Under the pieces are notes generated by a model that saw only the letters and a list, made by a program, of their open reading frames with translations, was not told where the DNA came from and searched no databases. Of a stretch of DNA of 41,444 bases, positions 2,085-21,680 are shown in pieces. The translations under genes were made by a program, and so were the position numbers. Origin of the DNA: Candidatus Kaiserbacteria bacterium (GTDB lineage: Bacteria > Patescibacteriota > Minisyncoccia > Phycocordibacterales > UBA2100); NCBI GenBank assembly GCA_016186765.1, contig JACPLD010000005.1, positions 79,785 to 121,228 on the forward strand. Direction: 5' to 3'. How positions within the stretch are numbered: position 1 is the first letter of the stretch; the number at the start of each line of letters is the position of its first letter.

Positions 2085-3146
2085 TTATCTTCCTCCCTCC
2101 TCTTCTCCTATTTCTAGCGTGGGGAGAAGTTCGCGCTGCTCGAATTTCTCTTGCGCTTCAATGAATACTTTCAAGGTCTTCGCATCTTTAAGGGCCTTCT
2201 CATATACCTCTTTGTCCTTGCCGTGTAGGTTCTTGATGAGTTCGCGTGTCTTCTGGAGCTGCTTCTTCACGCGCTCTGCGGTCGTCGCGTTCAAGTTTTT
2301 TTCAAATGCGTTAAACCGTGCCTCGGCCTCTTCAAGCGTCGAGGAGGCACTCTCACCAATGCGCACTGCGACCGGATCATCATTTGCCTCAAGCACGATG
2401 GAAGCGGTGATCGCGCTTTCGTCGCTCTTTACGAACGTTTGTACCGCAATATCACCCGAGACGCTGCGCTCCGCAGTGATGGAGACCGCACCTCCGCGCG
2501 CGAGGCGCTTGCCACGCTCCTTGAGAGCAGCCGCAAGGCGCACCGACTCGCGACGACTCGTTTCATCCTCCACTTCCTCGCCGAGCCGCTCGATAAGGGC
2601 ACTATGCGCGGCAAGTGCGGATTCGAAGCGGCTCGAAATGTCGGCGGCGGCAACAGGATCTTCTCGCTCGATCACCTCCACCTCACTATCGACTCTCGCG
2701 GCATGATCCTCGAGACGCGTCTCGAGTTCTGTTTTCGCTTCCGTCGTGAGTTCACCGCGCGACGTGAGCACTTCAGCCTCCTTCATGCGCCGCTCGGCAA
2801 GCTTTGTGTGCACTTCTGCTTTTGCTTCGGAGGAGATCGCGAGCACCTCAGCAACCTTCTCGTTCACTTGTACCTTGAAGGTATACAAAAGTTCGCCCGG
2901 TACGGCTGCTTCGGCTGCGTAGGCTGTGCCCCCTCCGATAACGGCAACCACCAATGCAAATGCAAGCGGGCTGACCAATTTCGATGAGATAAAGAGGTAG
3001 GGGCTCCGCGTAAGGCGAATTGGACTTTTTACCAGCGAGCCCGAGCGCATCGCGCTCTCAAGTGCATGGCGCATCACCTCCCGCTCCTTCGACGTGAGCT
3101 GGATTCCGTGTGTCTCTTTTTTCAGTTGTGAGAAAAATTTATTCAT
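2085..3146 (-). CDS. Membrane-anchored anti-sigma-like protein (DUF5667-like), likely start MNKFF
   Basis: Directly downstream of ECF sigma; one TM helix, then AVPGELLYTFKVQVNE motif and helical C-terminus. Confidence 0.7.
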   Translation of the reverse strand: MNKFFSQLKKETHGIQLTSKEREVMRHALESAMRSGSLVKSPIRLTRSPYLFISSKLVSPLAFALVVAVIGGGTAYAAEAAVPGELLYTFKVQVNEKVAEVLAISSEAKAEVHTKLAERRMKEAEVLTSRGELTTEAKTELETRLEDHAARVDSEVEVIEREDPVAAADISSRFESALAAHSALIERLGEEVEDETSRRESVRLAAALKERGKRLARGGAVSITAERSVSGDIAVQTFVKSDESAITASIVLEANDDPVAVRIGESASSTLEEAEARFNAFEKNLNATTAERVKKQLQKTRELIKNLHGKDKEVYEKALKDAKTLKVFIEAQEKFEQRELLPTLEIGEEEGGR

Positions 3147-19158: not shown

Positions 19159-20385
19159 TCAGACGGCAGTAAGCCGGTGCCCGAGCTTCTTCTTTTTCGT
19201 TTTGAGATAGCGCGAATTTATTGAGTTTGGTTTCACCTCGAGAGGAATGCTCTCGAGGATCGAGATTCCATGCCGTACGAGCTCGCGCTCCTTTTTTGGA
19301 TTGTTCGTAAGAAGTCGCACGGAGGAGATCCCTAGATCCTCAAGAATATGGGCTGCGGCCTCATAGGTGCGCGCATCGGCGAGGAATCCGAGCGCGCGGT
19401 TCGCCTCCACCGTGTCGAGTCCCTCATCCTGTAGCGCGTATGCCTTTATCTTGTTGGCAAACCCGATCCCCCTTCCCTCCTGGCTTAAATAGACGATGGC
19501 CCCCGAGCCGTTTTTCTTTATCCGGCGCATGCTCTCTTCGAGCTGCTCACCGCAGTCGCATCGGAGAGAAAGGAGCGTGTCTCCCGTGATGCACTGCGAG
19601 TGAACGCGCACGAGCGCTCCACTCCGGGGTTTGCCAAGAACGAGAGCAGCGTGTTCTCGATCGTCTGAAATAGATCGGTAGACAACGATATCGAATATTC
19701 CGTACTTCGTCGGCAGCCCCGCTCTCGCGAGGCGAACCACATCGGGCTGATGCGGAAGCGGGGAGAGCGGGTGTGTGTGCAGATACCGGACGAGGTCGCG
19801 TATTGTGATGATCCGTATGTTGAGTTTTCGCGCGAGCCGCACTAGTTCATTGCGCTTCGCCATGCGCCCACTTTTCCCAACGATCTCACAGAGAACGCCA
19901 GCAGGCGCATGGCCCCCAAGCCGTGCGAGATCTGCCGCTGCCTCCGTGTGCCCCGCTCGCTCGAGCAGACCTCCATCTCGCGCAACGAGTCCGAAGACGT
20001 GTCCCGGCCGCACCAAATCTTCTGCTTTCGAGCGAGGATTGGTGAGAACGCGAATCGTTCTCTCGCGATCGTGTGCAGAGACACCTGTCGTGATACCACG
20101 CCTGGCATTAACCGATACGGTGAAATTCACGCTCGTCTTCTCGGTGTTCTCGCTCTTCGGGACCATAAGCGAGAGATCGAGCCGCGCGGCCTGCGCGCGT
20201 GTGATCGCTGTGCACACGATTCCCCCGCCCTCTCTGATCATCGTGGTGATCGCTTTTGGCGTCGCGGCATCGGCAGGAATGTAGAGGTCGGCTTCGTTCT
20301 CGCGACCCGGATCGTCGATGATGAGCATCTTTCCTCTCCGAACGTCGGCGATCGCTTCTTCAACGGTACTGAATGTTTTCCTCAT
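19159..20385 (-). CDS. ribBA: Bifunctional DHBP synthase / GTP cyclohydrolase II
   Basis: DDPGRENEAD, RPGHVF, RAGHTE; RVHSQCITGD...RCDC, QEGRGIG, LLTNNP. Confidence 0.96.
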   Translation of the reverse strand: MRKTFSTVEEAIADVRRGKMLIIDDPGRENEADLYIPADAATPKAITTMIREGGGIVCTAITRAQAARLDLSLMVPKSENTEKTSVNFTVSVNARRGITTGVSAHDRERTIRVLTNPRSKAEDLVRPGHVFGLVARDGGLLERAGHTEAAADLARLGGHAPAGVLCEIVGKSGRMAKRNELVRLARKLNIRIITIRDLVRYLHTHPLSPLPHQPDVVRLARAGLPTKYGIFDIVVYRSISDDREHAALVLGKPRSGALVRVHSQCITGDTLLSLRCDCGEQLEESMRRIKKNGSGAIVYLSQEGRGIGFANKIKAYALQDEGLDTVEANRALGFLADARTYEAAAHILEDLGISSVRLLTNNPKKERELVRHGISILESIPLEVKPNSINSRYLKTKKKKLGHRLTAV

Positions 20386-20825
20386 AGTTCCGACATGAGC
20401 TCGATCATCGAAAGCGCCGATTCTGCCGCCTCGATGCCCTTGTTCTCCTTTTTTCTCGTCGCGCGCTCGAGCGCGTCCTTTAGTCGATAGACCGCGAGCA
20501 CTTCAAAAATGACGGGGATCTCGTACTCGAGGGAGACATCCATGCACCCACGTGCACACTCATTGGCAATTTGTTCAAAGTGATAGGTTTTTCCTTTCAC
20601 GATGGCACCGAATGCTATCAAGGCGTCGTATCTGCGCTTCTTTGCCAACTTCTTCGCGACAAGCGGGATCTCCAGAGAGCCGGGCACCCTGAACACATCG
20701 ATGTTTCCGACCTTCACGCCACGGCGCTTCAGCGCCGCAATGCATCGCTTTTCAAGCTCGCTCGTGACATCTTCGCGAAACGAGCTCCCGATGATGCCGA
20801 TATGTATGTCTTTGATTCTTTTCAT
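20382..20825 (-). CDS. ribH: 6,7-dimethyl-8-ribityllumazine synthase
   Basis: VPGSLEIP, GAIVKGKTYHFE, NKGIEAA. Confidence 0.95.
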   Translation of the reverse strand: MKRIKDIHIGIIGSSFREDVTSELEKRCIAALKRRGVKVGNIDVFRVPGSLEIPLVAKKLAKKRRYDALIAFGAIVKGKTYHFEQIANECARGCMDVSLEYEIPVIFEVLAVYRLKDALERATRKKENKGIEAAESALSMIELMSEL

Positions 20826-21403
20826 GCTCTTCTTGTGAGTTTCTCGATGTACTTCGCAAGTACGTCAACTTCGATATTCGCTTTGTCGCCAACTTTCACA
20901 GTGCGAAACGAGGTGCTCTCCCACGTATGCGGAATGATGCCGACGGTTACATACTTCCTTCCCGCCTTTACGACGGTAAGCGCGACGCCATTGACCGCGA
21001 TCGATCCCTTCTCGACCACATACTTCGAAAGCGTGCGAGGGATAGAAAATTTCAGCATGCGGCTGTTTCCCTTTCGCACGACGCTCACAAGTTTTCCAAC
21101 TCCATCTATATGACCCTGAACGATGTGGCCGGAAAGAAATGATATAGGCGTAGCAGGAAGCTCGAGGTTGACATAAGCGCCTCGCGGGAGATCGGGAAGT
21201 GTTGTTCGATGTGCTGTCTCGGGCATGATATCCGCCGAAAAAGAGCTCCCGTTTTTTGCGACGACCGTGAGACATGCGCCGTCAATCCCGATACTGTCCC
21301 CACGCTTGAGCCGTCGCAGAAACCTTTTGTTTGTGCTGATCGAAATCCCCGATCGTGTGCGGGTCGCAACAGTCCCCATTTCCGTGATAATGCCAGTAAA
21401 CAT
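20822..21403 (-). CDS. ribE: Riboflavin synthase alpha chain (RibE/RibC)
   Basis: MFTGII start, GDSIGIDGACLTV, GHIVQGHIDG, KGSIAVNGVALTV, NIEVD. Confidence 0.96.
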   Translation of the reverse strand: MFTGIITEMGTVATRTRSGISISTNKRFLRRLKRGDSIGIDGACLTVVAKNGSSFSADIMPETAHRTTLPDLPRGAYVNLELPATPISFLSGHIVQGHIDGVGKLVSVVRKGNSRMLKFSIPRTLSKYVVEKGSIAVNGVALTVVKAGRKYVTVGIIPHTWESTSFRTVKVGDKANIEVDVLAKYIEKLTRRA

Positions 21404-21425
21404 AAAACCCCGTTCGTTCGGGGTT
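21398..21425 (-). terminator. Riboswitch terminator hairpin overlapping the ribE start
   Basis: AACCCCG-AACGAA-CGGGGTT then TTATGTTT. Confidence 0.7.
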
Positions 21426-21457
21426 GCATCCATTCACCCAAAAAAAATGGGCGGACT

Positions 21458-21651
21458 TTCCTTCTTTCCCTACTACGCTCGCCTGCGGCGAGCTTCGAAG
21501 GGTCCTGCATAGCTTTATGCGACGCAGGACATCCCGACTATACGGTCGGTCGCGGGATTGAACCGCAGTCGTGTCCCGACATATGCCAGGACTCGCGGAC
21601 TCGCCTTGCGGCTTTACCGCCGATTGGGACTCACACCCAACCCCGAAGGAA
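21458..21651 (-). ncRNA. FMN (RFN) riboswitch with an internal insertion
   Basis: CTTCGGGG-TTGGGTGTGAGTCCCAA-TCGGCGGT...GTCCGCGA...GCGGTTCAATCCCGC-GACCGAC-CGTATAGTCG-GGATG; P1 TTCCTTC/GAAGGAA; upstream of rib operon. Confidence 0.9.
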
Positions 21652-21680
21652 CAGGGGAAGTGTACCACACTTTATTCGTG

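Follow-up and report, generated by a model that had tools for sequence, protein, structure and literature searches.

The FMN aptamer (RF00050, RFN), a target of antibiotics, is a textbook case of a six-helix junction, with junctions considered invariant. According to the numbering of F. nucleatum, residue A99 contacts FMN and U100 is flipped out; J6/1 of the model aptamers comprises residues 98-103, among which 101-103 are second-shell 'gate' residues that are stabilised by the ligand and protected upon its binding, and both J1/2 and J6/1 have been described as gates to the pocket (PMC3201879). FMN aligns P1 with P6, and the switching sequence of F. nucleatum corresponds to residues 6-11 (PMC7573352). 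Length variation among known FMN aptamers is located in P3/P4, as for P3a of B. subtilis (PMC3201879). Rare FMN variants were reported by Atilho et al. in 2019 (PMC6298564) and, like the riboswitch described here, they are natural variants lying within the FMN family or at its edge. In those variants, the ligand-contacting positions bear point changes and the six helices are kept, whereas in the present case the contacts are kept and the architecture is changed; no insertion is mentioned in PMC6298564. In a literature search, no article was retrieved that deals with FMN riboswitches of Patescibacteria or of the candidate phyla radiation (CPR).

The riboswitch described here shares the conserved core, P1-P6, with members of RF00050 such as B. 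subtilis ribD and F. nucleatum impX. Genomic contexts of the variant (riboflavin synthesis, EamA/ImpX-type and ECF transporters) are also common to both, as is a switching sequence, made of the P1 5' strand and J1/2, which is predicted to compete with a terminator. The difference lies in a 69-nt J6/1 holding two helices, which leads to an eight-helix junction: length variation in RF00050 concerns the P3/P4 helices, whereas here it concerns a junction, and most insert-bearing variants are below the Rfam gathering threshold, unlike typical members. Because its J6/1 is neither short nor fixed, this riboswitch is not an ordinary RF00050 member; it represents a new architectural variant within a known class, largely missed by Rfam.

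The ribE leader and its J6/1 insert

The whole stretch of DNA analysed (hereafter the window, 41,444 nt) belongs to a Kaiserbacteria-like bacterium of the Patescibacteria (CPR), and the closest RibE proteins (61-77% identity) were found among Kaiserbacteria and Gottesmanbacteria metagenome-assembled genomes. One FMN riboswitch was detected in it by Rfam (minus strand, 21654..21517; 68.7 bits for a gathering score of 66.2, E = 1e-13), upstream of the ribE-ribH-ribBA operon on the same strand (Table 1). In the RF00050 alignment, helices P2-P6 display high posterior probabilities across the whole core, and the conserved junction nucleotides are present (GGGG.. in J1/2 and GGAU in J6/1). As the RF00050 model ends inside the insert, its P1 columns contain non-canonical pairs, and this misalignment of P1 accounts for the small score margin. 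Two assemblies, obtained independently from two SRA runs (L081 and L082), share an identical leader, and the sequence is therefore no assembly artefact.

Table 1. Positions of leader features and operon genes in the window, and of related small elements in other loci (preceded by the locus)
Feature	Position	Strand	Basis or remark
Putative extended -10-like promoter element, TGGTACACT	21659..21667	-	about 8 nt upstream of P1; read directly
P1 5' strand, UUCCUUC	21645..21651	-	pairs with 21464-21458; read directly and from the fold
J1/2, GGGGUU	21644-21639	-	with the P1 5' strand, switching sequence
FMN aptamer core: J1/2, P2-P6, J6/1 through GAU	21531..21644	-	RF00050 alignment and MFE fold
Extra hairpin 1 ('P7'), GUCCUGCGU-C-GC-AUAAA-GC-U-AUGCAGGAC	21502..21530	-	starts with the conserved G of GAUG; folds
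Extra hairpin 2 ('P8'), CCUUC/GAA/GCUCGCC-GCA-GGCGAGC/GUA/GUAGG	21469..21501	-	folds and covariation
J6/1 3' remainder, G + AAA	21465..21468 (AAA = 21467-21465)	-	relatives: GAUG-AAA-GAAGGA
P1 3' strand, GAAGGAA	21458..21464	-	perfect complement of UUCCUUC
Variable platform hairpin, CGCCCA-U7-UGGGUG	21435..21453	-	full-leader fold
Intrinsic terminator, AACCCCG-AACGAA-CGGGGUU + U-tract	21396..21426	-	terminator scan; overlaps ribE start codon
ribE (riboflavin synthase)	20822..21403	-	PF00677, E = 3e-47
ribH (lumazine synthase)	20382..20825	-	PF00885
ribBA (DHBP synthase / GTP cyclohydrolase II)	19159..20385	-	PF00926 and PF00925
Copies of the ~32-nt module	L083:1000-1040; L084:1005-1045, 1075-1115; L105:4100-4140; L111:2450-2490		
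Copy of the ~32-nt module	L093 ~3085-3125	-	
Examples of CCTGAG-N-TCGAAGG	L001:531-605; L018:1652-1760; L091:1477-1502; L008:1603-1619; L017:4943-4981; L018:4540-4557		

On the minus strand, P6 is followed by GGGAUG (last G at 21530), an insert of exactly 62 nt (21529-21468), AAA and GAAGGAA. These boundaries are exact since close relatives devoid of the insert read GGGAUGAAAGAAGGA, their GGGAUG running directly into AAAGAAGGA. The two hairpins fold together at -34.4 kcal/mol (z = -5.4), a value reached by none of 200 dinucleotide shuffles, and the MFE structure of the aptamer alone (202 nt, 21656-21455) consists of P1-P6 and both hairpins. P1, 7 bp long, closes across the insert. A nearer P1 partner was sought and rejected: the sole candidate is a GAAG within hairpin 2, comparative data fix P1 at AAAGAAGGAA, and the enforced local alternative for the P1 3' strand, in which CCUUC of hairpin 2 pairs with GAAGG, is 6 kcal/mol worse than P1. 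Alignment with the F. nucleatum consensus places the insert between the equivalents of residues 101 and 102, and a weakened binding is therefore possible, as residues 101-103 are those protected by the ligand.

J6/1 is fixed at 7 nt (GAUGNNA), directly followed by P1, in 25 of the 25 canonical RF00050 matches (12 from non-Patescibacteria and 13 from Patescibacteria), canonical being defined here as passing the Rfam threshold. The RF00050 model fails to span the insert. These data are in agreement with the initial annotation, which had recognised an FMN riboswitch interrupted right after GGAUG by about 62 nt of two hairpins, closed by P1 across them and adjacent to the ligand pocket, as a departure from a family varying mainly in P3/P4. 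The latter pattern was also seen in the non-Patescibacteria aptamers examined, and the class assignment is borne out by the score, P2-P6 together with P1, the rib genes and the terminator.

Hairpin 2 contains a conserved 3x3 GAA/GUA internal loop. Its interpretation as a sarcin-ricin motif was discarded by hand because the register conflicts with covariation and L084 and L111 favour the 3x3 loop; kink-turns at the hairpin tips were likewise discarded by hand, their registers being incompatible with covariation. Hairpin 1 and P4 both start with GUCCUG, a resemblance which is not kept in L093 and is probably a coincidence rather than the trace of a P4 duplication. No credible match to another RNA family was found in the insert with Rfam (E <= 10).

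The expression platform points to a transcriptional OFF switch. A perfect 10-nt complementarity links the switching sequence UUCGGGGUUG to the 5' arm of the terminator, CAACCCCGAA, and relatives share a terminator consensus, AACCCCGAAG...CGGGGUUUU, that complements the conserved sequence of the P1 5' strand and J1/2. When FMN is bound, P1 and J1/2 would be held and the hairpin AACCCCG...CGGGGUU with its U-tract would terminate transcription, also covering a GGGG before the start codon that may serve as ribosome-binding site. When FMN is absent, the P1 5' strand and J1/2 would pair with the terminator 5' arm and the operon would be read through. This is the scheme known from F. nucleatum (PMC7573352), and neither extra hairpin would be involved in switching. 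In the MFE fold of the full leader, the 5' CCCUGUUC.CUUCGGGGUUG is paired with the terminator region. This 5' end (21638-21655, minus strand) is complementary to both terminator arms (21406-21426), and the resulting long-range helix has 18 bp in the window leader versus 10 bp in relatives and would mask the GGGG directly 5' of the ribE start codon as well.

Other features of the leader are worth noting. In relatives, a hairpin of another sequence takes the place of the platform hairpin. The element TGGTACACT is absent from the consensus-scan listing and may be an extended -10-like promoter element; TGGTATACT occurs at an equal distance from P1 in L003, L008 and L083. The ribE gene starts with the ATG at 21403 (MFTGII...), and its relatives likewise begin with MFTGII. 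An in-frame upstream ATG (21431-21433, minus strand) gives rise to the 203-aa RibE model of public databases (P0001), which reads through the terminator and probably has a mis-called start, judging from the homologues.

Recurrence and detection among Patescibacteria

Insert-bearing riboswitches were gathered from a targeted metagenome scan, in which the conserved P6/GGGAU was followed by 20-80 unspecified bases and by the AAAGARRR of J6/1-P1, and from two genome-derived loci (L015 and L019). Seventeen distinct FMN riboswitches with a J6/1 insert were obtained, apparently all from Patescibacteria. A two-hairpin fold was found in 16 of these 17 inserts, with z values between -3.5 and -7.7 for 15 of them and of -0.8 for L099. 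The hairpins were flush in all 11 lineages tested, hairpin 1 beginning with the G of GAUG and the second one ending immediately 5' of (G)AAA; paired J6/1 hairpins were separated by linkers of 0-2 nt. This flush topology starting from the G of GAUG was displayed by 1-8% of dinucleotide shuffles. Across clades, the inserts have unrelated sequences and share their topology and start base. The insert of the window is no one-off accident; it belongs to a two-hairpin expansion of J6/1 that recurs among Patescibacteria with a constant topology.

Hairpins homologous to those of the window were found in L093, L111 and L112, with freely variable loops. In this clade of four sequences, 93.5% of the cells are paired (93% for the helix cells of hairpin 1) and two compensatory pairs were observed, one of them in hairpin 1 and the other in the inner stem of hairpin 2, where C-G is replaced by U-A in L093 (GCUCGCC/GGCGAGC to GUUCGCC/GGCGAAC); with four sequences, the covariation score was matched or exceeded in 17 of 500 shuffles. 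Among the insert-bearing relatives, covariation is also seen in P1 (CCUUC/GAAGG, CUUUC/GAAAG and GUCUUC/GAAGAC). Genes located downstream of insert-bearing riboswitches were ribE, an EamA-family transporter gene or a sub-threshold match to an ECF S-component, and all gene contexts examined consisted of flavin genes. Within the window clade, L093 controls an EamA transporter gene instead of ribE; L111 and L112 may also control a transporter gene, their downstream ORF starting like that of L093.

The nearest RibE relatives (L083, L084 and L090) have no J6/1 insert, and in a neighbour-joining tree of low resolution, based on 101 core columns, aptamers with and without the insert are intermingled. 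This pattern indicates that gain and loss are dynamic and that the module is dispensable and possibly neutral. One origin shared by all J6/1 inserts was not retained: the two kinds of aptamer alternate in the tree, at a resolution that does not separate an old module with losses from repeated gains.

Only three of the 16 complete insert-bearing riboswitches (those of the window, L094 and L108) reached the gathering score, the remaining 13 being below it. Covariance models thus under-call the FMN riboswitches of Patescibacteria, and inferences on flavin metabolism and its regulation in reduced genomes are distorted.

Additional deviations were observed during this survey. In the FMN riboswitch L020:2792-2908 (69.5 bits), the J6/1 sequence GAUGAAA is replaced by AGUCGG-UGAG-AGAAUGA; lacking GAU and thereby the ligand-pairing adenine, it may be a specificity variant. 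The transporter leaders L097, L100 and L105 lack an expression platform of their own, and the start codon lies 3-5 nt after the P1 3' strand, of which the GAAGGA/GAAAGA probably doubles as a ribosome-binding site.

Role and origin of the hairpins

J6/1 is split between the G of GAUG and AAA by two self-contained helices, P7 and P8, around which P1 closes. Owing to a linker of 0-2 nt, both helices could stack end to end, a possibility suggested by the linker lengths, and the strand would then enter and leave at adjacent positions in a nick-like geometry. The 'gate' to the pocket could in this way keep its path, whereas a single hairpin would hold the two ends a helix width apart, and this may have led to the selection of pairs. 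The sequence of the module would turn over quickly, and its effect would probably be at most modulatory, on P1 stability or folding time. Our best estimate is that the hairpins are a tolerated or stabilising structural expansion and no second sensor. The locus as a whole is predicted to be an FMN-sensing, functional OFF riboswitch of the terminator type with an eight-helix aptamer, controlling ribE-ribH-ribBA and carrying the hairpins as a lineage-specific expansion, a reading to which we assign a probability of about 60%.

Small hairpin elements accompany these riboswitches. Among other FMN riboswitches of Patescibacteria, related hairpin modules occupy loops of P2, P3, P5 and P6; they occur in both orientations and are sometimes nested. 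One of them, conserved and about 32 nt long, reads CCCGUCCUUCG-YUAAARCUA-CGGAGGGC(G)AGG and occupies equivalent P2 and/or P5 loop positions; the P2 inserts of L019 and L097 contain the reverse complement of its loop. The 12-nt tip of hairpin 1 of the window, CGCAUAAAGCUA, is identical to the tip of the P2 insert of L105. Another element, CCTGAG-N(3-10)-TCGAAGG, has 17-20 nt and folds as a tandem-GA mini-hairpin; these short CCUGAG..CGAAGG hairpins resemble a tandem-GA 'k-loop', yet they also occur as reverse complements. Patescibacteria loci (280 kb) contained 22 occurrences versus one in 336 kb of other bacteria; the element lies in intergenic DNA, riboswitch helices and ORFs, in both orientations and sometimes nested, and none was found within the window. 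In L018, a tRNA-like sequence GGCGGCGTAGCTCAA... (~2745-2850), for which Rfam made no tRNA call, is apparently split by two small hairpins and adjoins a normal tRNA (2858-2930).

The description of the window hairpins as REP-like units in the initial annotation was not supported: no further copy of either hairpin was found in the 41-kb window by sequence and regular-expression scans, nor by covariance-model scans for hairpin 2 (best other match E = 6), and covariance-model and sequence scans of about 295 kb of related DNA yielded a single copy of hairpin 2 outside riboswitches. The latter (L084:843-879, 41.9 bits) lies directly 5' of a tRNA-Thr gene and has the same GAA/GUA internal loop, with compensatory changes in both stems. 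Furthermore, neither target-site duplications nor terminal repeats were visible at the junctions GGGAUG|UCCUGC and GUAGGG|AAAGAAGG. The lack of further copies in the window and of such duplications or repeats weighs against a view in which the hairpins are selfish, tiny mobile or recombining palindromes of neutral effect, the regularity of two hairpins merely reflecting which insertions the aptamer survives. Such elements would nevertheless account for the occurrence of related modules at differing sites (P2 in L083, P2 and P5 in L084, P5 and J6/1 in L093), for the presence of the same loop in both orientations (L001 versus L019 and L097), for nested copies (P3 of L019), for the hairpin 2 copy abutting the tRNA gene, for the enrichment of CCTGAG-N-TCGAAGG in Patescibacteria, including intergenic DNA and ORFs, and for the patchy phylogenetic distribution of J6/1 inserts. 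They fit less well with a topology and start base that are common to unrelated sequences from different clades, or with the maintenance of the window-type pair, through compensatory changes, in riboswitches controlling different genes, and we regard a purely selfish nature as unlikely.

A regulatory add-on appears quite improbable, whether as a helix competing for the P1 3' strand or the switching sequence, as a timer delaying P1 closure while transcription proceeds, or as a site for a protein or a second ligand. The 5' arm of hairpin 2, CCUUCGAAG, does look like the 5' strand of P1, and its pairing with GAAGG or CUUCGGGG is conceivable; the inserts of L101 and L113 are complementary to the switching sequence (p ~0.03-0.04), that of L100 being borderline (p ~0.06), and an internal competitor would be useful in the three transporter leaders in which the P1 3' strand is the putative ribosome-binding site. 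The conserved internal loop of hairpin 2 may also be of a type that is often protein-binding. However, RNAduplex energies between insert and switching sequence were no better than those of shuffles (mean z = -0.6 over 16 inserts), which led us to reject competition for the switching sequence as a general rule. In the window, the alternative pairing is energetically disfavoured relative to P1, as given above, and both hairpins remain folded in the modelled bound-like and unbound-like states and are therefore static; between clades, neither loop nor stem sequences are conserved. Least credible of all is that the insertion has inactivated the riboswitch, leaving the operon constitutive or otherwise controlled. 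The insert does lie within a junction involved in stabilisation by the ligand (PMC3201879), and the Rfam score is barely over the threshold, but the core, P1, the terminator and the antiterminator complementarity are all intact, and the architecture is kept in many lineages together with P1 covariation and flavin-gene contexts.

A broader and rather doubtful proposal is that Patescibacteria possess a subclass of eight-helix FMN aptamers, in which a J6/1 'gate' module alters ligand kinetics or affinity or is read by a protein, the hairpins being derived from a family of tiny dispersed elements that colonise riboswitches, tRNA leaders and ORFs of these reduced genomes. Under our main reading, the recurrent and apparently selected two-helix insertion marks a place where the FMN fold tolerates or exploits additions and, being located two nucleotides from a ligand-contacting base, it allows the model of the gate and of P1/P6 stacking to be tested on a natural RNA. 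An undescribed class of mini-repeats may be represented by the small hairpin elements found alongside.

Tiny hairpins inserting into structured RNAs and ORFs are known from other bacteria, namely the short dispersed or STRR repeats of cyanobacteria, found in RNase P RNA, and the palindromic elements of Rickettsia. CCTGAG...TCGAAGG resembles them in being self-folding, in entering RNA helices and coding regions, in either orientation, and in being sometimes nested. Unlike these repeats, the window hairpins have no other copy in the window, and the J6/1 module is defined by its topology. The rRNA of CPR bacteria offers another parallel, with expansion segments and lineage-specific insertions at tolerated sites: in both cases, lineage-specific helices are accommodated at tolerated sites of a conserved fold. 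In contrast to the rRNA insertions, the J6/1 module is hosted by a small ligand-sensing aptamer, two nucleotides away from the base that contacts the ligand.
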